NCBI GenBank assembly: GCA_046153645.1
Contig: JBJXGI010000065.1
Location: 1 to 10,035, forward strand
Origin: Elusimicrobiota bacterium
GTDB lineage: Bacteria; Elusimicrobiota; Elusimicrobia; F11
DNA length: 10,035 bases
Direction: 5' to 3'
Positions within the stretch are counted from its first letter, which is position 1. Every line of letters starts with the position of its first letter. Under the pieces are notes generated by a model. It worked only from the letters and a program-made list of their open reading frames with translations, was not told the DNA's origin and did not search any database. Of the stretch, positions 2-10,035 are shown in pieces. The position numbers and the translations under genes are program-made.

Positions 2-3000
2 AGTTAAAAAACGAGTCCACTGCTCATCGCTCATTGACGGGAGACGACTCTGTAATTGACCATCAATACTCCGCACATCTTGATCCACTGGAACAGTTTT
101 TAATATTTCATTCCAGGGGTTTTCTAATGATGGGACTATTTTATTATTGAGTTCAATTTTTAAATTCTCTTCTCTTCGTTTTTGAAAATAAGGTTTAACA
201 ATGAATTGATAGAAAAATACAATCCCAATAGTACCTGTGATCACCCAACCCAGCCAACCATCGACAAAACCAAAGGGTAAAAACACGCCTGAATAAGGAA
301 TAAAACTTGAACCGGGGTTTTTACGCGCCAACCGACCAGCTTCTAAGCGTTTAAAAAGAATTTGGGCGTGGTGCCTGAAACCAGGAACATCGGCAAACCC
401 CCAAAAATCATGAATATTTTCAATCGCCCATCGATTCACTTCCAAATCAAAATCAGATTTTAATGCTCCGGCATGAGCAGGAACCTGATTATAAATATAA
501 AGCAAAAGAACTCGCATCCAATCAGGTGTTTTCTCAGTTTGAAAATCATCACCAAACAATAAAAGGATGTTTGTGGAATAATCCTGATCGACAGGAATGG
601 CCTTGTTATCTTTCATCCATTGATCAAATACAACCAATATAATGGCGGTTTTTTCTCCGCTATCAAGAATTTTATTTTGGTTCAAAGCACTCAAGAATTT
701 TTCCCAATTTTCGACAAGTTCTAACTTATTTTCTTCCTTCGCCTTTTTTATTTTTGTGTTTACTTTTCTAAGTTCAACGGGAATTTTTCCATTAAAAAAC
801 TTTTCCATTGTTAAGGGCTGAGTTTTTTCAGAAATATTGAAAGTAAATGTAACCTTCAACTCAACATAAGGCCGAGGAATCACTTTTCCTTGAGAAATAA
901 AATCATCATAAACCTTTCGAAGGAGTTTCTTTTTATTTTCAAAACCGTACTTTGCTGACCTTAAAGCGAACAAAAAGTCGGACCAATTTCTCAATAAAGT
1001 GGCGCCATTATTTTCGGGAAGTGCTTTTGTAAACTCAGCCTGAATGCTTTTAAAAAGAGTTTGAACATCAGCATCTAAATTTTTATCGCTTAAAAATTCG
1101 AGGAGAGACCTTCCATCTAAAGTGTAACTGCCATCCCCCTGATGTGTTAATGTTAAATTTTTTGGTAGAGACGAATTTTGAGAACCTGTTAAAATAAACT
1201 GGGACCTTAATTTTTCAGCTTCTTTATCTATTTTTTGATCTTTGGGTTGTAACTCTTGATAAGGCCACAAACCAAGCAATGCGCCCGTTAATTCAGTCTG
1301 AGCGTCTAATAAAGCTAATTTTTGATAAGAAAGTTTGGGGCGATAAACTTTTCTATCAGTCAATAAAACGGACATTACATCTCGAATTAACGCATCTTCT
1401 TCCGTGGCCGTTAATTCAATGGCAGGAGAAATGGTAACAGCGGCACGAGCTTCTCCTTCTTCTATGGATTCTTCTTCCGTAGGTGCTTGTAAACGCGCAA
1501 GCACGTTTTCAAGCCACTCAGCTAAATTTTCAGGAACCGCATCTTCAGGTTCATCAACATTTTGTAACCACAAAAGATCTAAAAACGTCTGCCTGCGTTT
1601 ATTTAACTCTTCAAATCTTCTTCCATCATAGTCGCGGGTTCCAAGAAAAAAATCTTGAGCAAAGGGAGTTAAGCCCAAATTCACATCTGGTGGGAATTGC
1701 CCATTGAGATAATAGGCTTGAATATCTTGAGGCGTGTTCGATGGTTTAAAATGATAAGACACAACATCAATATCATGAGGCCTAAAAACAGGATCGAAAT
1801 AAATGAGTTTTCTACCCGGATGATCAATTTCAGCTGTGCGAGTCCACCGGGTATAATTACTAATTAAAACAGGCGCTGAGGTTTGGCGAGACAAAAAGAA
1901 ATCAATAAGTTTTTTCCCTTTATATTCACCGATATCAGGAAACTTATCTCTTAACAAATCTTTCAAAAGTCGCGCTGTCTCGTCTTGTTCGACAAGAATA
2001 ACATACGACTCTCCTTTATGATCTTCAAGAAATTGTATGAGCGCAGCAACTTTGGCATTGGAGTTTGATGATGCGAACGATCCTGTTTGATTGGCCACGT
2101 GAGTTCTTCTATGATGGCGTGGAATATGTGATTGCCCTTTGGCTCTTGAAGGGGGATTGGTTTCGGCAATCAAAACATTTTCTAATTGAGCCCCTGATAA
2201 AGTGTAATTAATAGGAATGAATGTTACTTGAGGAGCAAACAAAACAGAATTTCCACTTTTATCTTTGGCAGAACGAACGATATTTTGTGGATCTATCCAA
2301 ATAAAACTATCTTGAAAAAGAGAATGCAATAAACGCACGTCCTCCGGGTTACGTGGATTAAAAAGAAGCGCTTTATCTGTCGGCATTTGGCGGCGATCTA
2401 AAAAATAAAGAATTCTTAAAAAACCGGAAAAATCTGTTTGCGATGTTAAAGAAGTGGCAACAATTCGTGTGATGTCATCACGATTTTTTAAAAAATCTTC
2501 TATTTTCTTCGAATATTTTTTCTCACCAATCTGGTATCCACCTGTAAAAATAATACTGCTCGAATTGGCTTTGTCTTGTTCTTTTATTGTTTCCAATTGA
2601 GGGCTTGAAGAAAAAATTATTTTCCCTTGGGTTAAATCCCCATCAAATGGCTCCAAAGTGTCACTCAAATCTAAGTAGGGAACAGCGGTTTCAAATTCGT
2701 CTAGAATCTTTTTCCAATCTGGCAACGTGGCGGGATCAACAACAAAAATAATATTTTTCCCTTCTTTAACAACACTCGCAGAAAATGACAATAAATCTCT
2801 TTTTTCATCAATGGAGTGAAACATAACTCCTCTCGCATTCTTTTTTTCATGACGTTTTCGCAATTCATAAAAAGCAGCTTTTCCTGAGAATAAACGAGAA
2901 GACACGCTCTCTTTAAAGTTGGGAGGGCTTAAATCTCTAATTTCTTGAAATTCCTTTTTGAGTGCAGCAATAACCAATCCCATCTCAACATTTCCTTTGG

Positions 3001-6000
3001 CCAAACTGTCCAATTGCTCTAAATGAGACATCGCTTCAACAGGGTCTACATCAAATCGTCCCATCCAAATTCTCTTTAATGTCTCGACCATCCGGTCTCT
3101 GGCTTTTCCAAGTTCTAGAGACCGCGCAGAATTTCGTTGAACTAAAAGTGTCAAAATTGTTTTGGCCTCTTCCTGGGTAAACATCCCCCCTTTAAAACGA
3201 AGCTCTAAATTTAAAACATCTCCCCTTAAAATGGTTTTGGAATTTGTGATCATATCACCGGCAAAAAAACTTAATTGACTAAGATCATCTTGATTATCTC
3301 TTGTGATGAGCAAACGCCCTTCAACGGTAATGAGCCCATTATTTTCAATCAAACGAATTTCTCTTTGATCAAAACCACGCGCGAATAAGTGCGTTAATTT
3401 AAAGGTTCTAAATTTAGATGTCGGTTTTATTGTTACTGAAAATTTAACCCATTGTGAAGAAACGTCGATCGTTTCGAGTTTTTTCAGATCCACTATTTGG
3501 CCATTAATTTTCACCTCTTTAAAAGTATAAAGACCTTCAATGCCAACAAAAGGTCTGTTTTGATTCGGCCCTAAAAATTGCAATAAATCAGGATTCACGG
3601 TGTAATGGCCTGCGGCTTGAATAAAAAATTCCGGATAATGAAGCCGAAACCAACTCCAAAACTCCTGCTTATTTTCACTGATTAATTCGGGATGGTTTCT
3701 CAGGTACTGAAGTAACTCTTCTAAATCGTGCCCCTCTTCTTTTAACTTCTGTAAACCTTCAGCAAAACCCAGGGCCACCGGGTCATTACCTAACCAAGCT
3801 TGAACGGTAGTAAGTAAAGTGCCACAAGCAGTTGCAATTAAATTTAAATCGCCTTGAAAACGAATAATTAAATCTTTTAAAACTTCTGGCCCTGGCTTTA
3901 AATCTCTCCACAGCATGGTGAGTTCAGAGGGTGTATTAAAAACCCATTGCCCCACAACCTCAGTGGTTACTCCACAATCATCAGCAATCACCTCAAAGTC
4001 GCGGGATTTAATTCTCACATCAATTAATTTTTTTAATTCTTCTGTGGAAGGACGGTTTTTTCTTAATATTTCTGCCAATTCTTTGATCCGTTTATTTTCA
4101 TTATTATTTAACCACTGATGAACCTGATCACGTGCAGCTTTTATCTCACCAACAGTGGCATTGGTTTCATAAAGCAACCGAGCCATATCTCCTATTCGAC
4201 CATTCCGCGCAGGGTCTTTAATCACAAACTCTTCCAACCACCCTTTCACAGTTTGAGTGGAGACCTTTCTCTCACCTGCTATTTTTTCCGCATCAAACCC
4301 CCATCGTTTCAACAAATCAACCATATCCGCTTGGCTTGGAAGAGCCACTCTTTTATCTTTAAATTCAGTGAGATGAAAAAAAGAAAATTTCAATAAATCC
4401 AGATCACTGGAATCAAAAACATCAGAAAAAGATTGATAAGCCTCTTCCGCTTTAACCAGGTCAATCAATAAACCATCCCACATAGAAATATTTTTTTGTT
4501 CTTTATAAAGAGCCTCTATAAATTGAATGAGAATTTCTTTTCGATAGCGGTTAGCACTTTCAGAGGGTAATTCTTTCAGATTTGGAGTTTGTCTAAACTC
4601 TTCCTCATTAGGAAAAGGAATATTCGGATCAAAAAGAGAAGGCCAGTTATTGATATCTAATAATAAAAACTCTAAATCAGGAGAATTTGGATGTAAATGA
4701 ATAACAGTGCTATCCTCACCTTGTCCGTACGTAATTTTAATTACACCTGGAGACGAAGAAGGGCCTTCAACATTTTCAATAGTTTCAATCCCAATCTCAT
4801 CGGTCATATATGCATTGGGAGGCTCCATATACAGAACTGGTTTATTTAATTGACCAACAAATCCATAATGCGTAACAAAACTACTAATAGATGCCCCTTG
4901 TTGCTCGCGTTCTTTACTTGGGGCATAAAAAACCCTCCGTCTAAAACCAAATTTATCATTTAGATATTTATAAATCAGAATACCTACAATAATTGAATCA
5001 CTGCCTAAAAGCCCTATCCAATAATCACGCATTGATTCCAAATGGGAAACGTTATCTGCTGGAATTATTTTTTTAATGCTTCCGAGAGTATATTTTCCAT
5101 CATTCGAATAAAGTGGTTCACCTTTTTGCAACTGAACAAATAAATCTCTTTGCAACATGGGGTATTTCAAATATATGGCGTTCCTCATATCAAGAATAAT
5201 TTTTTGAACTTCGGATTTATCTCTCGTATCTAAGGAGGGCACGGTAACAATAAATCTCTTTTCCTTTTGATCATAACTCAGAGTGATAGAATTCTTTCTT
5301 ATATCTACTCGAATTTCAAAATCTGTTTCAGGTGCATATTTTTTAAGAAACGGACGAATATAACGGTTGATGGATTTCAAAAGTACTCCAGAAACCACTC
5401 CTGACTGAGAAGGTAAAATCAAAACCGGTTCTTGTACATCGAATTGCTTATCAATATTTGGAGTGTTTACATATATTTCATGTGCTTGTTGGGGAATTAA
5501 TTTTTCTGCTGGTTTTTGAGGAGGGTTTACAAATTCTTTTGTTAACTGCTCAATCCTCTCCCTATTGTCCCCTAAATTAACTTTTGAGTTAAAATATTGA
5601 AATATTTCCAACCACTCTGCTTTTATTTGAGGTATTTGACTTTCAGAAACATTTTGAGATTTTAAATACAATTTTGCTGCTGCTAAAATATCCGCAGGAG
5701 GATGAAGAAAAAACCGATCAAGAAAAGACCCTTCCCCTGGAATTTTATCTTCAAGAAAATCAATTAACGATTTTAATTCGGCTTTTAATTTAGGTGATGC
5801 AGAATTACTCAGGATAAATGCTTTCATTAATTCAAGAGAAGGATAGGGCGTTAAAGCAATGATCATAGATAACGCGAAGGAAAGGCTTCTTTTATTTTCA
5901 CTAGAAGGAAAATAATTTAACAACAGAAAATCAATTAACATTGATTGCGCAGAACCTAGATTATAAAGATATGCTTTTTCAAAATTATCCCCTGGCAAAT

Positions 6001-9000
6001 TGATTGCAAATGGATTCTCAGTTTTTTTATCTATGTTATCTTGAAGGAGTTTCATAATAGGAGTTTCTTGAATATAGGCGACAACCCAATTAATTCTTAA
6101 ATCTGCTGTTTTGCATGTTAAAAGCCCTGTGAACGTCAGGTTTTCAGCAGAATCAATAATAAGAAATGGCATAGGAGAATGATTATCATAAGTCACTTTT
6201 TTTACTTTTCTAATTTTCACCAGTTGAAACTTTTCAATTGATAAATCTTCAAAGTCTTGAGTTGGAGAAACCAACATTCGTCCGCGAGGCATATACCATG
6301 TAGTATTTAATATGACAATGAACCTCTTTTTTTGATCTATTTCAGATCCATTTATAAATGCAGGGTCAGTTAAAGCTTCAGTCCACGCCGAAGATAAGTT
6401 TCTCATATAAGGAGCCATCAATGCATTTTGCTCTGGGTCGGTAAAAACAGGTTTTCTTGTGTTAAAAAGATCAAACATTCTTGCAAAGTGTTTTTTCTCT
6501 TGCTCAAACAAAGTTACATTCGCAGAGTCAGTCTCATCAAACTCAGAAATAGTTTTAATTTCTTTCTGTGGAATTGCAATTAGACTTCCTGGCTTCGGCG
6601 CCCGATCAAACAATTCTCGGATTGCAGAATTAAGTTGCGGATGATCAGCGTCAGGAACAAAATCTTTCATTAAAAATTGATACAAACCAACCCAGTCAAC
6701 ACTTAAATTAAGGTGATGTGTTACAGATGGATAATTTTTCTTAAAAGCACTTACCATGAAACCAAAAAGAACTTGAGCAGGAACATCTTTTACATATTTC
6801 CCTTCGAAATCTTTGCTTAAAAAAGTCACCACATCCTTAATTAGTTGAGGTACTTTTTCTTTGTTTTGAAACCAAAAACTTTCGCATGCCTGATGAACAT
6901 TTGATGAAAGTAATCCAATAAGACCAATGATTAATTTCTCAGTTTCCCGCGGATTATTAGGTTTTGGTGCTATTGCAAGAATGGCTTTAAAAATTTCTAT
7001 TTGATCCCAACCAACAAATTCAATTATGTTTTGCTCTAAACTATGAGAGGGGTTTTTACTCTGTATTAATGGAAAACTTCTTTTCCATGCATTTAATAAC
7101 GCCTGATGGTTTAGACATATAATAGGAAAAGGCGTTTTATATTTATTTAAATAAGCGTACACCCTATCTTGAATGGAAAATTCTTTTTCAGAATCTAAAA
7201 CCAAAATAAGAAAAGGCATGTTTTCATATTTAGAATCCTTAAAATTCCGTTTTATTTTGGAGAGCGAGAAATTATTTCGGTTCAACGAAATAGTAATTTC
7301 AATTGAACCACTTGAAATCAAAACCAATCCTTCTTTAAAAAAATACCGATCATTTAAGAATGAAATAAAATATAAAAAAGTTTGATTATAATTTGAAACT
7401 GGAGCAAATTCCGACCGATTAGGGCCTTCTAGTTCTTTAAAAAATTCACCAAGAATTAAATTAACTTGAGGATTTAACGATCGTGGTTTAGTTGAGGGAT
7501 TTAGTAAATATTCACGTGCCTTCGACAAAAGTTCCGGCAATATTGACAAATAGCTGCCATATATACTTTTTGATGTATCAGAATCATCAAAATCACGGAG
7601 CTGAGAAAGAAAAGTATTATCTTCTGCCACATCTTTGGTTGATCCAATATCATTACTTGTCATAGTAAAACTGTCTGGCATTTGATGAGAAGGGTTACTT
7701 CCACCCGAGGTCATATTCATGACCAATAAATCTTTCAAAACACTTGATAGTGCATCTTTAAATGAAGGGGCCATTAACAAGTTCCCCTCCCCCGCAAAAG
7801 CAAAAGCCGACTGGGGGCGCATTCGGTTCCAACGATCAAATGCAATAAGAAAAATAATAACAATGGCCCCGATAAGAATGACCATGTGAACATTTATAAG
7901 CCAAACAAAAACCTGCTTTGATTTAAACGCCGCTGTCATGAGTAATAAAACATCAGTGCCTGCAGCCAAATACCATCCCAAATGCCGGTGATAGATCCAG
8001 CTTGTTTTTATTTTTCCATTTGAAGACTTAACAGAGAAAGAAGCGGAAGTTTCAGGAGATAAATTCACCCGTCCTTTTACTTCGCTCTCTGAAGAAGAGA
8101 AAAGTTCAAGATTCGCATTGAGCGGTTTTTTAAGTCGACCCAGAATTCTTTTGAAAATATTGGAAGCCTCTGCAGTCGAAACAACTTTATTTAATATTCC
8201 TAAACTTAAAGCTCGTGTCAAAAAATTTAATTTTTGATCGGGTGTCCCCACTTCTTTGGCGAGGAATAAACGATCTCCTTTAAACAATTTTTCGAGCGGT
8301 GTTTTTTCCCGTAAAAAAGAATTCAAATAGGCCGAACCATTTGATGTTTCTATCTGAGTCATTTTAGGAATGAAAGAGATAACGTTGTAACCAGCTTCGT
8401 TAAGGCGTTTGGTGATTCCTTGAGAGTGAAAACCACCCGTTACCAAAACATAAGAAAGAGGCGTTCCGAGTTCTTTATTCTTAATATTTTTTACATTTCT
8501 GAGAAAATTTCCGGCCATTCTTTCATCACGAATTTCGGCTTCTCTATAAAATTTTTCAAAGGGTAAAAAATCGATCCCTCTGACTAACCCTCTTCCAATC
8601 TGAGATAGGGGGACGGGTGAGGGCATCATTATTGATTTATATTCTTTCCACTCTTCGTTTGTTAATTCAAAACGAACCAGCTTAGACATTAAATACAAAT
8701 CCCGAGACTGCTTAACCAGCATTTGCTCTTCAGAATTTTCAATTTCGTTTTCAAAAACCTGAAATTCTAAATTTCTAATTTGAGAAAAAAGTATTTCTGG
8801 CTTAATTTCATCTGATTGCATCACATATTGAATATAAGCGTTCATCTTGGGCATTTTCAAAAGATCAATATGGCAACTCTTACACAACGAAACAACATAT
8901 CGGTAAAACTCAGCCGTAGAAATGTCTCCAGAGCGATAGGCCAATGTCATCTTCATGAGCTGATTTAAGGCAGGAGCAGATATTCGTTGAGAAATTTTTT

Positions 9001-9985
9001 CCAATAAAAGAGCCCTTTCATATTCCACTTGTTTAAAATGAAGTTCCGATTCTATTTTGGATACGGTCAAAAATTTATCAACTTGTTCAAGTGATAAACC
9101 ATTGAGAAAGCCGCCATTCCCGCGAAGGCGAGAATTATTATTTTTGAATCTACTCCGGAGTGTTTGTAGATAAGTGGTTAAATCTATTTTTTTACTTCGA
9201 TAATTTTCTACCACCACGTCTAAGCTTTTTAAAGAGTCGTTCAAGGTTTTTTGTTTTTTAAGTATTAAGCTTTTTTTAAGATCCTCTAGGTGATTCATCA
9301 CGCGACTTTGAAGTGCACTTGCCGCTTTGAAACTTTCAACATTTTCTTGATGATGTGTTTTGTCATCAATTCCGATGAAATGAACGCTTTGGTCATAAGG
9401 AGGTGTTAACGCCGCATGAAAACCACCACTCATTTCATTTTCTTCCAACATAGAATTGGCCGCTTGTTCTCTTAATGAAGCGTTCAATCCCACTAAAAAA
9501 GGCCTCGTATCTAAAGAAGAAAAAGCCCCTTCTAAAGCTACCATTCGGGTCGTATTGTGAGATATAAAATCTCTTATCGCCTGACTCAAATGTTTTTGTG
9601 CTTCTAGATTTTCATGAATATCGTGTATGTAGAAAATATTCTTATTACTTTTTGATTTTGCCCAAGATACAGAATGAATAGAACCGTGATTGAAAGGAAT
9701 TGTCAAATGAGGAATATTGATTGAAGACGTTTTTTTCGCCAAAGAAAGAGGGGATAAGGGATCAGATTTAGAAAAAGACTTTATCTGAGGAAGCCCACTA
9801 GAAAGCTGGGCCAACTGTACTAATGGTTTCTGAATACTCTTTTTTCGTTCTTCCCATAACTGAGATTCCCTTTCATGAGCAAATAAAACATGTGAAAAGA
9901 CAACGGAAACCGATAAAACAAAAGCCATTGCTTTATGAAGTTTTAATTTAGTTTTCTTAACGAAAAATAGATTCAAAAGAGTCAT
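2..9985 (-). CDS. Giant multidomain membrane-anchored protein, >3328 aa, 3' end beyond the left edge of the window (signal peptide + TIKI/EreA/ChaN-like domain + TM + tandem repeats + HTH array + pseudo-SNF2 helicase + TM)
   Basis: Minus-strand frame with codons at + positions = 2 mod 3 has no TAA/TAG/TGA from ATG 9983-9985 to position 2 (checked line by line). An in-frame stop lies upstream at 10010-10012. Starts MTLLNLFFVKKTKLKLHKAMAFVLSVSVVFSHVLFAHERESQLWEERKK; last residues in window are ...SRLPSMSDEQWTRFLT. Alternative start is ATG 9926-9928. Confidence 0.95.
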   Translation of the reverse strand, partial: MTLLNLFFVKKTKLKLHKAMAFVLSVSVVFSHVLFAHERESQLWEERKKSIQKPLVQLAQLSSGLPQIKSFSKSDPLSPLSLAKKTSSINIPHLTIPFNHGSIHSVSWAKSKSNKNIFYIHDIHENLEAQKHLSQAIRDFISHNTTRMVALEGAFSSLDTRPFLVGLNASLREQAANSMLEENEMSGGFHAALTPPYDQSVHFIGIDDKTHHQENVESFKAASALQSRVMNHLEDLKKSLILKKQKTLNDSLKSLDVVVENYRSKKIDLTTYLQTLRSRFKNNNSRLRGNGGFLNGLSLEQVDKFLTVSKIESELHFKQVEYERALLLEKISQRISAPALNQLMKMTLAYRSGDISTAEFYRYVVSLCKSCHIDLLKMPKMNAYIQYVMQSDEIKPEILFSQIRNLEFQVFENEIENSEEQMLVKQSRDLYLMSKLVRFELTNEEWKEYKSIMMPSPVPLSQIGRGLVRGIDFLPFEKFYREAEIRDERMAGNFLRNVKNIKNKELGTPLSYVLVTGGFHSQGITKRLNEAGYNVISFIPKMTQIETSNGSAYLNSFLREKTPLEKLFKGDRLFLAKEVGTPDQKLNFLTRALSLGILNKVVSTAEASNIFKRILGRLKKPLNANLELFSSSESEVKGRVNLSPETSASFSVKSSNGKIKTSWIYHRHLGWYLAAGTDVLLLMTAAFKSKQVFVWLINVHMVILIGAIVIIFLIAFDRWNRMRPQSAFAFAGEGNLLMAPSFKDALSSVLKDLLVMNMTSGGSNPSHQMPDSFTMTSNDIGSTKDVAEDNTFLSQLRDFDDSDTSKSIYGSYLSILPELLSKAREYLLNPSTKPRSLNPQVNLILGEFFKELEGPNRSEFAPVSNYNQTFLYFISFLNDRYFFKEGLVLISSGSIEITISLNRNNFSLSKIKRNFKDSKYENMPFLILVLDSEKEFSIQDRVYAYLNKYKTPFPIICLNHQALLNAWKRSFPLIQSKNPSHSLEQNIIEFVGWDQIEIFKAILAIAPKPNNPRETEKLIIGLIGLLSSNVHQACESFWFQNKEKVPQLIKDVVTFLSKDFEGKYVKDVPAQVLFGFMVSAFKKNYPSVTHHLNLSVDWVGLYQFLMKDFVPDADHPQLNSAIRELFDRAPKPGSLIAIPQKEIKTISEFDETDSANVTLFEQEKKHFARMFDLFNTRKPVFTDPEQNALMAPYMRNLSSAWTEALTDPAFINGSEIDQKKRFIVILNTTWYMPRGRMLVSPTQDFEDLSIEKFQLVKIRKVKKVTYDNHSPMPFLIIDSAENLTFTGLLTCKTADLRINWVVAYIQETPIMKLLQDNIDKKTENPFAINLPGDNFEKAYLYNLGSAQSMLIDFLLLNYFPSSENKRSLSFALSMIIALTPYPSLELMKAFILSNSASPKLKAELKSLIDFLEDKIPGEGSFLDRFFLHPPADILAAAKLYLKSQNVSESQIPQIKAEWLEIFQYFNSKVNLGDNRERIEQLTKEFVNPPQKPAEKLIPQQAHEIYVNTPNIDKQFDVQEPVLILPSQSGVVSGVLLKSINRYIRPFLKKYAPETDFEIRVDIRKNSITLSYDQKEKRFIVTVPSLDTRDKSEVQKIILDMRNAIYLKYPMLQRDLFVQLQKGEPLYSNDGKYTLGSIKKIIPADNVSHLESMRDYWIGLLGSDSIIVGILIYKYLNDKFGFRRRVFYAPSKEREQQGASISSFVTHYGFVGQLNKPVLYMEPPNAYMTDEIGIETIENVEGPSSSPGVIKITYGQGEDSTVIHLHPNSPDLEFLLLDINNWPSLFDPNIPFPNEEEFRQTPNLKELPSESANRYRKEILIQFIEALYKEQKNISMWDGLLIDLVKAEEAYQSFSDVFDSSDLDLLKFSFFHLTEFKDKRVALPSQADMVDLLKRWGFDAEKIAGERKVSTQTVKGWLEEFVIKDPARNGRIGDMARLLYETNATVGEIKAARDQVHQWLNNNENKRIKELAEILRKNRPSTEELKKLIDVRIKSRDFEVIADDCGVTTEVVGQWVFNTPSELTMLWRDLKPGPEVLKDLIIRFQGDLNLIATACGTLLTTVQAWLGNDPVALGFAEGLQKLKEEGHDLEELLQYLRNHPELISENKQEFWSWFRLHYPEFFIQAAGHYTVNPDLLQFLGPNQNRPFVGIEGLYTFKEVKINGQIVDLKKLETIDVSSQWVKFSVTIKPTSKFRTFKLTHLFARGFDQREIRLIENNGLITVEGRLLITRDNQDDLSQLSFFAGDMITNSKTILRGDVLNLELRFKGGMFTQEEAKTILTLLVQRNSARSLELGKARDRMVETLKRIWMGRFDVDPVEAMSHLEQLDSLAKGNVEMGLVIAALKKEFQEIRDLSPPNFKESVSSRLFSGKAAFYELRKRHEKKNARGVMFHSIDEKRDLLSFSASVVKEGKNIIFVVDPATLPDWKKILDEFETAVPYLDLSDTLEPFDGDLTQGKIIFSSSPQLETIKEQDKANSSSIIFTGGYQIGEKKYSKKIEDFLKNRDDITRIVATSLTSQTDFSGFLRILYFLDRRQMPTDKALLFNPRNPEDVRLLHSLFQDSFIWIDPQNIVRSAKDKSGNSVLFAPQVTFIPINYTLSGAQLENVLIAETNPPSRAKGQSHIPRHHRRTHVANQTGSFASSNSNAKVAALIQFLEDHKGESYVILVEQDETARLLKDLLRDKFPDIGEYKGKKLIDFFLSRQTSAPVLISNYTRWTRTAEIDHPGRKLIYFDPVFRPHDIDVVSYHFKPSNTPQDIQAYYLNGQFPPDVNLGLTPFAQDFFLGTRDYDGRRFEELNKRRQTFLDLLWLQNVDEPEDAVPENLAEWLENVLARLQAPTEEESIEEGEARAAVTISPAIELTATEEDALIRDVMSVLLTDRKVYRPKLSYQKLALLDAQTELTGALLGLWPYQELQPKDQKIDKEAEKLRSQFILTGSQNSSLPKNLTLTHQGDGSYTLDGRSLLEFLSDKNLDADVQTLFKSIQAEFTKALPENNGATLLRNWSDFLFALRSAKYGFENKKKLLRKVYDDFISQGKVIPRPYVELKVTFTFNISEKTQPLTMEKFFNGKIPVELRKVNTKIKKAKEENKLELVENWEKFLSALNQNKILDSGEKTAIILVVFDQWMKDNKAIPVDQDYSTNILLLFGDDFQTEKTPDWMRVLLLYIYNQVPAHAGALKSDFDLEVNRWAIENIHDFWGFADVPGFRHHAQILFKRLEAGRLARKNPGSSFIPYSGVFLPFGFVDGWLGWVITGTIGIVFFYQFIVKPYFQKRREENLKIELNNKIVPSLENPWNEILKTVPVDQDVRSIDGQLQSRLPSMSDEQWTRFLT
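197..304 (-). other. Second membrane segment (TM helix, possibly a hairpin)
   Basis: FIPYSGVFLPFGFVDGWLGWVITGTIGIVFFYQFIV, flanked by basic RLARK upstream and KPYFQKRR downstream. Confidence 0.7.
1574..2929 (-). other. Degenerate SNF2-family (SF2) helicase/ATPase fold, both RecA lobes, predicted catalytically inactive
   Basis: Collinear SNF2 scaffold: Ia GKNIIFVVDPATLPDWKKILDEF; III region RIVATSLTSQTDFSGFLRILYFLD; LHSLFQDSFIWI; APQVTFIPINYTLSGAQ; SNAKVAALIQFLEDHKGESYVILVEQ (IV); LIYFDPVFRP; IQAYYL; terminal GTRDYDGRRFEELNKRRQTFLDLL. Walker A, DExH and motif VI residues are absent. Confidence 0.7.
3791..4339 (-). other. Array of 3-4 tandem helix-turn-helix-like units
   Basis: PSQADMVDLLKRWGFDAEKIAGERKVSTQTVKGWL (4339-4235); GRIGDMARLLYETNATVGEIKAARDQVHQWL (4201-4109, atypical); PSTEELKKLIDVRIKSRDFEVIADDCGVTTEVVGQWV (4051-3941); PGPEVLKDLIIRFQGDLNLIATACGTLLTTVQAWL (3895-3791). 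Units 1, 3 and 4 share IAxxx(G/K)(V/T)xxx(T/V)VxxW(L/V). Confidence 0.65.
5483..7609 (-). repeat. Two diverged tandem ~350-aa protein repeats (copy 1 at 7609-6560, copy 2 at 6559-5483), unknown domain
   Basis: Collinear matches: LSQLRDFDDSDTS/IKTISEFDETDSA; KPRSLNPQVNLIL/KPVFTDPEQNALM; FISFLNDRYFFKEGLVLIS/FIVILNTTWYMPRGRMLVS; MPFLILVLDSE/MPFLIIDSAE; IKDVVTFL/LKSLIDFL; PAQVL/PADIL; VDWVGLYQFL/AEWLEIFQYF; APKPGSLIAIPQ/PQKPAEKLIPQ. Offset is about 1050-1077 nt. Confidence 0.7.
7838..7912 (-). other. Transmembrane helix 1 (N-out, C-in predicted)
   Basis: VFVWLINVHMVILIGAIVIIFLIAF followed by basic DRWNRMR (positive-inside rule). Preceded by the weaker hydrophobic segment LGWYLAAGTDVLLLMTAAF. Confidence 0.8.
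8588..8623 (-). repeat. Degenerate BoxC-like palindromic element, in-frame within the CDS
   Basis: Minus strand CCCTCACCCGTCCCCCTATCTCAGATTGGAAGAGGG resembles the CCCTCACCC-n-CCCTCTCCC-n-GGGAGAGGG repeat family. It is GC-rich in an AT-rich gene and translates as PSPVPLSQIGRG. Confidence 0.55.
9113..9136 (+). repeat. dRS3-like short palindromic element, in-frame within the CDS
   Basis: GCCATTCCCGCGAAGGCGAGAATT. Core ATTCCC-N8-GAGAAT (9116-9135) is one mismatch from the dRS3 pattern ATTCCC-N8-GGGAAT. Stem ATTCCCGC/GCGAGAAT with a GAAG loop. Translates as NSRLRGNG. Confidence 0.65.
9878..9985 (-). other. Predicted Sec signal peptide (aa 1-36)
   Basis: Basic n-region KKTKLKLHK, hydrophobic h-region AMAFVLSVSVVFSHVLF, probable cleavage after ...VLFA, then HERESQLWEERKK. 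Confidence 0.7.
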
Positions 9986-10000: not shown

Positions 10001-10035
10001 GGTGACCCCTTAAATTCCCATTAACACCTGATGAA

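Follow-up and report, generated by a model that had tools for sequence, protein, structure and literature searches.

The window analysed here is the whole of contig C75 (JBJXGI010000065.1, 10,035 nucleotides) of the Elusimicrobiota genome assembly GCA_046153645.1 (2.6 Mb, 99.7% complete; G000 below), and it is filled by one giant gene. The minus-strand frame is free of stops from position 10009 to position 2, a stretch of 3336 codons with a chance probability of about 1e-109. From the Met at 9985 it encodes 3328 residues and is still open at the contig edge, which is probably why the open reading frame (ORF) track lacks it. The uninterrupted, window-filling ORF of the preliminary description is confirmed, while the label "hidden" has to be dropped, since the protein, P0001, is present in a public protein collection. 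P0001 belongs to a family whose layout comprises a signal-peptide-like start, a head with the Tiki fold, variable cargo, optional transmembrane (TM) modules with an even number of helices, and an alpha/beta tail that ends in Ala. The family is real, and no printed description of it was found in the literature searched, whose coverage stops short of the preprint supplements, where catalogues could list ChaN-type matches. The features of the gene, all on the minus strand, are listed in the order of the protein, after the element that precedes it.

10009..10025, minus: last two units, GTTAAT-N5-TTTAAG, of a periodic (~11 bp) upstream element, recognised by eye; the rest lies past the contig end
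2..9985, minus: giant ORF, 3328 residues, running off the contig; full length probably ~3,520 residues
9878..9985, minus: signal-peptide-like segment, residues 1-36 (n-region +5 against +1 at the mature start, hydrophobic core 2.5; heuristic)
9839..9868, minus: ExxLWxERR motif, residues 40-49, after the predicted cleavage site (paralogue alignment)
8351..9703, minus: Tiki/ChaN/EreA-fold head with a large helical insertion, residues ~95-545 (motifs and structure model)
8261..8329, minus: end-of-head motif YLxxFxxEKTPLxKLFxG, residues 553-575 (conserved in the paralogue alignment)
7838..7984, minus: probable two-helix TM hairpin, residues 668-716 (hydropathy 1.43, which is weak, and 2.8)
6563..7609, minus: repeat 1, residues 793-1141 (self-alignment; no Pfam or Atlas match)
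5486..6559, minus: repeat 2, residues 1143-1500 (self-alignment; an 81-residue piece matches the orthologue L190)
4376..5479, minus: region of residues ~1503-1870 (no match in Pfam or in 298 family proteins)
3788..4339, minus: three units resembling helix-turn-helix (HTH) domains, residues ~1883-2066 (HTH_40, mutual similarity, conserved in orthologues)
2936..3778, minus: domain of residues ~2070-2350 (conserved together with the HTH block in orthologues)
1616..2923, minus: SNF2-like two-lobed module, catalytically degenerate, residues ~2355-2790 (Atlas 0.96)
326..1588, minus: region of residues ~2800-3220 (colinear in orthologues)
200..307, minus: hydrophobic segment, residues 3227-3262, remnant of a four-TM module (either a single long helix or a short hairpin)
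2..199, minus: start of the family C-terminal domain, residues 3263-3328 (alignment of residues 3287-3327 to the orthologue L192, behind its TM segments)

Contig C75 has no exact end overlap of at least 8 bases with any other contig and no BLAST bridge to one. The contigs of four runs of one study, possibly the source of C75, agree with it with zero joints or indels, and none of them extends past its ends or spans the whole gene. That the ORF is an assembly chimera or a non-coding artefact is a negligible prospect: the contig is short and open-ended and no read-derived contig runs across it, but there are 3336 codons without a stop and colinear homologues in three other genomes. In one of these, G010:C15, the same head (30% identity) is followed by a block that is colinear with residues 1883-3250 (24% identity over 1517 columns), and similar colinear blocks occur in G008 and G006. 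Because relatives in other genomes hold the same module order, the ORF is not a chimera; the colinear orthologue L190 rules that reading out. Against misassembly, the relatives are stronger evidence than the four-run contigs. The missing 3' end of the gene can probably be placed as well. Residues 3287-3327 align with the post-TM region of L192, the orthologue in G006 (z 4.5), and the tail of L192, compared with 18 fragments of G000 that are open at the 5' end, finds its best match in the 181-residue start of contig C103 (z 22.9; the next 2.6). Since the end of P0001 matches L192 and the tail of L192 matches C103, the gene probably continues from C75 into C103 and the protein would be about 3,520 residues long, with a terminal Ala. 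The fragment at C103:2-544 is an open-ended piece of 181 residues with a family tail at its end, and it directly precedes another family gene.

The same N-terminal part recurs throughout the genome, joined each time to something else. A BLAST search of P0001 against all G000 ORFs gives 48 matches including itself, none of the others extending beyond residue ~740, and a profile of the head finds 50 loci, which make up 12% of the assembly. In Pfam searches, 52 entries (paralogues and headless fragments) have unrelated cargo, most of it without a match. The cargo that is recognised includes sigma70 regions 2-4, SNF2, AAA_5, VWA, methyltransferases and HATPase_c, as well as cNMP-binding, metallophosphoesterase, AAA_12 and propeller domains; it is cytoplasmic in kind and, by eye, mostly keeps its catalytic motifs. 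The conserved leader with variable cargo that had been predicted is thus what the paralogues display. No fixed C-terminal architecture occurs across them, whereas orthologues do keep their module order. Outside G000, all 11 genomes of the same family have 19-46 head matches each. Within the phylum, the head is present in 73 of 251 sampled genomes and in none of those from the families f7 (0/79), f13 (0/20) and f14 (0/15); families in which the head occurs include f1, f4 and f10. All 79 named loci among the best 80 of 290 are from Elusimicrobiota. At 50% identity the head profile gathers 9,673 clusters; the distant relatives are named as Endomicrobiaceae, Omnitrophota, a Chlamydiota bacterium and Ca. 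Theseobacter, and P0001 stands in the same list with an E-value of 1e-21. The cultured species Endomicrobium proavitum is not among the names listed, in limited searches that are not evidence of absence. The earlier assignment to an Elusimicrobiota/Omnitrophota type of giant protein agrees with this distribution, since long proteins of both Endomicrobiaceae and Omnitrophota carry the same head.

The model of the head, with a mean predicted local distance difference test score (pLDDT) of 83, consists of a split beta-sheet and a large helical insertion. Among 48,161 chains it matches ChaN (Z 8.4), BcR135 (7.9), HopBA1 (7.7) and EreC (7.5). Five of the top six chains are ChaN, BcR135, 2QGM, HopBA1 and EreC (Z 7.5-8.4, root mean square deviation 3.7-7.3, 154-186 aligned residues); an unnamed Tetrahymena chain ranks fifth, and PMT and RRSP rank behind the top six. 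Foldseek returns nothing for this model at E<=0.001, and PF04187 matches 19 of 41 heads at E<=0.1, the best at 1.9e-6, under the Pfam cut-off. Since the Z scores are middling and Foldseek is empty, the superfamily assignment rests on fold and motifs together. The putative catalytic residues D122, H124, E152, R486 and H520 are invariant in 42/42 aligned paralogues, as are Q130, G153, G205, G517 and G518. The catalytic set is kept in all of the 85-89 non-gapped sequences among 93 other Elusimicrobiota heads, and in 95-102 of 103 distant heads. According to PMC6254334, RRSP is a Tiki-fold MARTX effector with the catalytic residues E3900, H3902, E3930 and H4030, and the spacing of 28 between H124 and E152 equals that of H3902-E3930 in RRSP and H85-E113 in Bcr135, residue equivalence being assigned by motif. 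Because of the fold matches, the invariant catalytic set and the RRSP-like spacing, the head is very probably an active Tiki-type hydrolase, and the Tiki-like domain of the preliminary description is borne out. With the other superfamily members (ChaN 2G5G, BcR135 2RAD/3B55, 2QGM, EreC 6XCQ, HopBA1 5T09, the C2 domain of PMT 2EBF and RRSP 5W6L) the head has in common a parallel beta-sheet core, an acid-x-His motif, a Glu 28 residues on, an Arg and the His of GGxH. Its distinctive features are an Asp rather than a Glu as the first acid, a helical insertion of ~260 residues, and the fusion to thousands of residues of variable cargo.

Three genomes (G033, G034 and G038) have stand-alone heads of 567-623 residues with ordinary signal peptides, which terminate just before or inside the end-of-head motif. 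Such heads without cargo lie at L132:9146-11005, L133:8850-10589, L134:7494-9362 and 10691-12391, and L135:8642-10381. Next to them lie signal-peptide proteins, several of which have an LRP/LAP-like motif behind the signal; some of these neighbours end in helices with a terminal Ala or Leu. Stand-alone heads and neighbours together could be the same system working in trans.

The N-terminus of P0001 has a K-rich n-region, a hydrophobic core and a VLFA site, a heuristic n/h/c pattern. In the ExxLWxERR motif, which is also found in stand-alone heads, W44 is kept in 38/42 and R47 in 39/42 aligned paralogues. An export-type charge pattern is present in P0001, in 48 of 49 Endomicrobiaceae-like members and in 83 of 91 members of the Omnitrophota-rich set. 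The signal peptide of the preliminary description is thus a signal-peptide-like pattern in P0001; charge orientation is mixed in its own class, where 69 of 137 members have the export type.

The TM segments differ somewhat from those described at first. Behind the head, where the preliminary description has a TM, residues 668-716 are indeed hydrophobic; in the orthologues L190 and L191 this place is taken by two clear hydrophobic segments, and the first TM of P0001 is probably a two-helix hairpin. The last hydrophobic segment is present too, as the remnant of a four-helix module rather than as a plain TM helix: L190 and L193 have four-helix modules whose helix 1 it resembles, and L192 has a full EE/H/H module in this place. 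A profile of these modules gives 46 matches in 34 proteins, with EE, H, H and N conserved, and P0114 passes the Pfam cut-off for PF02517. Like the CPBP/Abi/Rce1 proteases of that family, the modules keep EExxxR, FxxxH and HxxxN in four TM helices; unlike them, they are embedded and repeated inside polyproteins and often degenerate, P0001 having a remnant only. The motif residues E, H, H and N are kept in 21 of 26 scored modules, 8/10 of those right after the head and 13/16 of the internal ones. After incomplete and duplicate rows are dropped, the Lys plus Arg pattern is 2.8/0.2/4.3/0.0/2.5 for post-head modules (n=10) and 2.3/0.1/4.8/0.0/2.1 for internal ones (n=16), so that both sets have basic flanks and a basic middle loop with uncharged outer loops, which is a positive-inside arrangement. 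The post-head region recurs internally in 20/192 members (some of them duplicates, and some matches not TM modules); in C31 three later modules, which flank sigma70 domains, have 43-51% identity to the first. Since four helices return the chain to its starting side, head and cargo would be on the same, cytoplasm-like side, and we infer that the membrane does not separate head, cargo and tail. Of 191 complete members, 25 have no hydropathy-predicted TM segment after the signal peptide (a looser cut-off lowers this to 15), and several of the 16 such members scanned have sigma70, PGI plus PGM, GlpX plus PGK, PEP-utiliser or methyltransferase domains. An outside head linked to inside cargo by one TM segment, as first proposed, is not supported on either count: where it can be tested the two are on the same side, and 25/191 complete members are TM-less.

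The C-terminal end, which lies past the sequence available to the preliminary description, is a family feature in its own right. A terminal Ala is present in 30 of 32 complete G000 paralogues, compared with 7.7% among 968 other ORFs (p 2e-31), and one of the two exceptions continues in an overlapping ORF with an Ala end. In other genomes 27/36 closed ORFs end in Ala, and six of the nine exceptions are followed by a same-strand ORF that does; all ten complete fused members in the set that also contains the stand-alone heads are Ala-ended. The proportion is 88/150 among representatives, incomplete ones included, and the 103 distant proteins, partial ones included, end in Ala (56), Leu (16) or Val (7). 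The last 15 residues have the pattern of an amphipathic helix. A tail profile trained on other genomes puts the G000 family tails at the top of its ranking, even when the last residue is left out (p 3e-13). In the one tail subfamily modelled (pLDDT 87.8), an alpha/beta domain ends in the amphipathic helix; its fold matches are generic Rossmann-like ones, the best with Z 6.2, and Foldseek finds nothing at E<=0.001. A single fold for all tails is not borne out, the profile of the largest cluster gathering 18/166 tails.

The cargo of P0001 has no significant match in the 298 other family proteins. PDB sequence searches gave nothing significant, and searches of NCBIfam, Rfam, phages and plasmids nothing useful. 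The two repeats of ~350 residues reported earlier are real: residues 793-1141 and 1143-1500 share 75 identities in 374 columns with a score of 95, which 0/1000 shuffles reached (shuffle mean 39). Neither has a Pfam or Atlas match, and among 40 relatives there is one weak match. In the HTH array, three mutually similar units are kept in orthologues, as described, while the Pfam match to HTH_40 is weak (E 0.0012, under the cut-off). Together with the domain behind it (residues ~1876-2335) this block is 29% identical to G010:C15 (E 5e-43). The SNF2/Helicase_C assignment of the next module comes from language-model features (Atlas 0.96; 10/10 best matches in the same family or clan); Pfam and phmmer do not recognise it, and a pairwise comparison with an intact SNF2 paralogue is not significant. 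In the motif nomenclature of SNF2 enzymes, the module has in common with SNF2/SWI2 ATPases (PF00176, PF00271) the two-lobed layout and stretches resembling motifs Ia, III, IV and V, and has lost Walker A, DExH and motif VI; no GK[TS], DEx[HD] or RxxRxG is present. Four colinear relatives likewise have the module without Walker A and motif VI, and because this loss is common to them the dead state appears to be old and kept. Judged from these motifs, the domain is a conserved pseudo-ATPase. Of the SNF2-like fold in the preliminary description, the fold call stands and the catalytic motifs are missing; "DNA-handling modules" overstates the case for this member with its pseudo-ATPase.

Upstream of family genes, for example in C10, C18, C71 and C100, there are periodic TTTAC/TTAA repeats with a spacing of 10-11 bp. 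The element, a pattern chosen post hoc, is exact in 9 of 35 family upstream regions, against 0.05 expected, and has 24 exact matches in the whole of G000. Because this ~11-bp-repeat element is common to family genes, it suggests one regulator behind them. As to cut sites, RSExR, which forms a junction in some Omnitrophota-type head proteins, has 27 matches in 11/104 proteins of the distant, Omnitrophota-rich set, five in 265 Elusimicrobia-class cargoes, and none in P0001 and 43 G000 cargoes. A second candidate, PxxLAxAG, which follows the first TM segment and is kept in two orthologues, is not enriched (16 matches in 442 proteins; 1.9 against 1.7 per 100,000) and was rejected.

MARTX toxins, known from Vibrio and its relatives, have a conserved chassis, an interchangeable effector train, a built-in protease and a C-terminal signal. 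The present family resembles them in having a conserved chassis, an interchangeable cargo train, a protease candidate and a C-terminal signal. It differs in that Pfam finds no RTX/MARTX repeats or CPD, whether in P0001 or among the 52 entries (paralogues and fragments), that no recurring transporter or type I secretion gene lies beside family genes, and that it has an N-terminal signal peptide, bacterial-type regulators and enzymes, and about 50 dispersed paralogues. Polymorphic toxin systems (CDI, Rhs, LXG) combine a constant N-terminal trafficking part with a variable payload, as the family does; in the family, however, the variable part is internal, the C-terminus is the conserved Ala-ended domain, and the cargo is not recognised as toxins. 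As to immunity genes, the neighbour survey (ORFs of at least 100 residues in G000 and at least 120 residues in 79 loci) found no recurring downstream gene; the 3' end of the present gene is off the contig. The giant proteins of Omnitrophota ("Archaeovorin" type), described by West-Roberts 2023 and Nielsen and Lui 2026, likewise combine a signal peptide and TM segments with cytoplasmic-type enzymes in one chain, and the former reports N-terminal regions without identifiable domains. The same head leads Omnitrophota-named proteins of 1.3-3.9 thousand residues with SecA_DEAD, PGM, glycosyltransferase, HEAT and GNAT cargo; the sharing is known from these shorter proteins. The Archaeovorin type exceeds 30,000 residues and has SecA_DEAD, glycosyltransferases and hydrolases, whereas P0001 has ~3,500 residues and none of those domains. 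The main texts of both papers mention neither Tiki nor ChaN nor erythromycin. One Omnitrophota giant protein, which is not known to carry this head, is up 3-fold in attached cells according to PMC10066038.

The layout of the family poses a paradox, in that an export signal precedes cargo that faces a cytoplasm, and delivery into another cell resolves it. The reading preferred here, to which we give a probability of about 0.4, is that the family consists of exported polyproteins whose cargo acts in the cytoplasm of another cell, in line with the polyprotein or effector idea of the preliminary description. The chain would leave the producer's cytoplasm, the tail would be a sorting signal for a second step, and the cargo would end up exposed to the cytoplasm of its host or prey, where the Tiki head or the Rce1-like modules would free it. 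P0001 would deliver its HTH array and its dead SNF2-like module, which would bind nucleic acid or partner proteins without ATP. The chain would work like a MARTX effector train without itself being one. In favour of this reading count the head common to unrelated cargoes, the invariant catalytic residues with their RRSP-like spacing, the terminal Ala and the tail profile, the charge pattern that post-head and internal modules have in common, the TM-less members (several with sigma70 or enzyme domains), the export-type charge of P0001 and of most distant members, the ordinary signal peptides of stand-alone heads, and the rise of an Omnitrophota giant protein in attached cells. That this amounts to an undescribed bacterium-to-cell protein delivery system in Elusimicrobiota, Omnitrophota and neighbouring phyla is a more tentative proposal. 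If it is true, every chain sent out brings along a signal for export, a Tiki processing enzyme of its own, intramembrane protease modules that release themselves, and a sorting helix with a terminal Ala; through tens of such chains per genome, the host or prey receives sigma factors, pseudo-helicases, kinases and enzymes of central carbon metabolism that rewire it; and the Tiki enzyme that stands alone in some lineages may act in trans. Such a system would account for the unexplained giant proteins of Omnitrophota.

Several observations weigh against delivery into another cell. A Sec-exported chain with four-TM modules is expected to stop in the inner membrane of the producer, and many family cargoes are housekeeping enzymes. 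Export-type charge is found in only half of the Elusimicrobia-class set, as given above. The TM count of P0001 is ambiguous and the parity of its last segment uncertain, TM counts being based on hydropathy alone throughout; the TM-module profile does not match P0001, which lacks an intact Rce1-like module. Beside family genes the survey found no conserved gene for a partner, for secretion or for immunity, and there is no shared cut motif in this lineage; no delivery machine was found, the pilus-type ATPases of G000 having no shown link to the family. Orthologues keep their architecture across genomes, as in some 20 metallophosphoesterase-bearing Endomicrobiaceae proteins, a slower turnover than that of toxin arms races. 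PMC11257099 describes most Endomicrobiaceae as commensals that live free in the gut.

The same paradox would be resolved inside the producer by a non-exporting anchor. The N-terminal segment would then anchor or target the chain without export, with head, cargo and tail facing the producer's cytoplasm, and the proteins would be membrane-tethered stores or scaffolds released by Tiki or Rce1-like cleavage, their Ala tail serving as a degradation or turnover tag. Nonpolar ends in -AA are signals for ClpXP, Tsp and FtsH. All recognised cargo is cytoplasmic in kind with mostly intact catalytic motifs, the positive-inside pattern sets the head on the cytoplasmic face, a basic WxERR patch follows the hydrophobic core, 68/137 members of the class lack the export-type charge pattern, and the common upstream element suggests co-regulation. 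This own-cell arrangement, the main rival, is nevertheless rather unlikely, because stand-alone heads, like most members of Endomicrobiaceae and Omnitrophota type, begin with ordinary signal peptides of the export type, and because it leaves unexplained why 12% of a genome is given to fast-diverging copies, why a dead helicase is conserved, and why the tail is a folded family-specific domain. Transmembrane signalling by one protein, in which a periplasmic Tiki head would sense or cleave a signal and control HTH/SNF2 or sigma cargo in the producer through an odd number of TM segments, was the alternative named in the preliminary description. The succession of signal peptide, head and TM segment fits it, as does the regulatory nature of sigma, HTH, kinase and cNMP cargo; the first hydrophobic segment of P0001 is weak (1.43), so that a single crossing is possible, and helix 1 of a four-TM module could stay out of the membrane behind an exported domain. 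TM-less members with sigma70 cargo speak against it, as do the first modules, which are 43-51% identical to internal ones and mostly have the catalytic Glu of helix 1, the two TM segments after the head in orthologues, and the metabolic nature of much cargo; we regard it as improbable.

Display at the surface or in the periplasm would make the proteins exported coats or arrays of enzymes working outside cells, on the walls of prey or on substrates that have leaked out, as has been proposed for Omnitrophota giants. It would suit the signal peptides and some sugar-active cargo, and giants with a signal peptide and TM segments are read as extracellular by West-Roberts 2023 and by Nielsen and Lui 2026. 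Sigma factors, SNF2-, Upf1- and AAA-type ATPases, PGK and SAM methyltransferases, however, need cytoplasmic partners and cofactors, the positive-inside charge of the TM modules is on the side of the cargo, and Pfam finds no adhesin or wall-lytic domain in P0001; display is thus slightly less probable again. Export, cutting and the extracellular role of the giants' cytoplasmic-type enzymes are open questions in the same two papers. The family offers three testable handles, namely the catalytic site with its invariant residues, the proposed sorting helix at the end of the chain and the intramembrane protease modules, and the stand-alone heads of 570-620 residues are small enough for expression. 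Either outcome would be new, whether sigma factors and metabolic enzymes are delivered to other cells or a genome-wide system of tethered polyproteins works within the cell.

Several minor observations concern the surroundings and the copies of family genes. In the Endomicrobiaceae-like loci L138, L139, L140, L141, L147, L148, L149 and L150, an ORF of 170-215 residues with a hydrophobic N-terminus lies just upstream on the same strand; it is not obvious in G000. ATPase genes, which we take from their motifs to be AAA_14/DUF4143-like, adjoin about six family genes in G000 (C10, C18, C29 twice, C31 and C100), and several other family genes are flanked by toxin-antitoxin-like small genes. Two tandem family genes, L136 and L137 (G069:C1:1692000-1716400), have identical N-terminal sequence and different cargo, which suggests a recent duplication or gene conversion of the head. 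At G000:C80:20555-28463 a family gene is split into overlapping ORFs (1294 and 1363 residues), the second with an Ala tail, and C23:17491-20204 holds another split copy. A paralogue of 10,189 residues at G000:C86:11315-41881 combines AAA and VWA with eight repeats of a distinct HExxH-like TM module, and contigs C6, C37, C79, C84 and C87 have giant ORFs of 4,100-8,700 residues with neither head nor tail, which form a separate class. Five small genomes (0.9-1.3 Mb) of one genus have one or two copies each, one of them broken, and our guess, from genome size, is that these bacteria are endosymbionts. At L180 (G132:C18:71522-72962), in a 1.0-Mb genome, a head gene has decayed to a pseudogene; the related small genomes have only one or two copies, and some of their frames exceed 7,000 residues.

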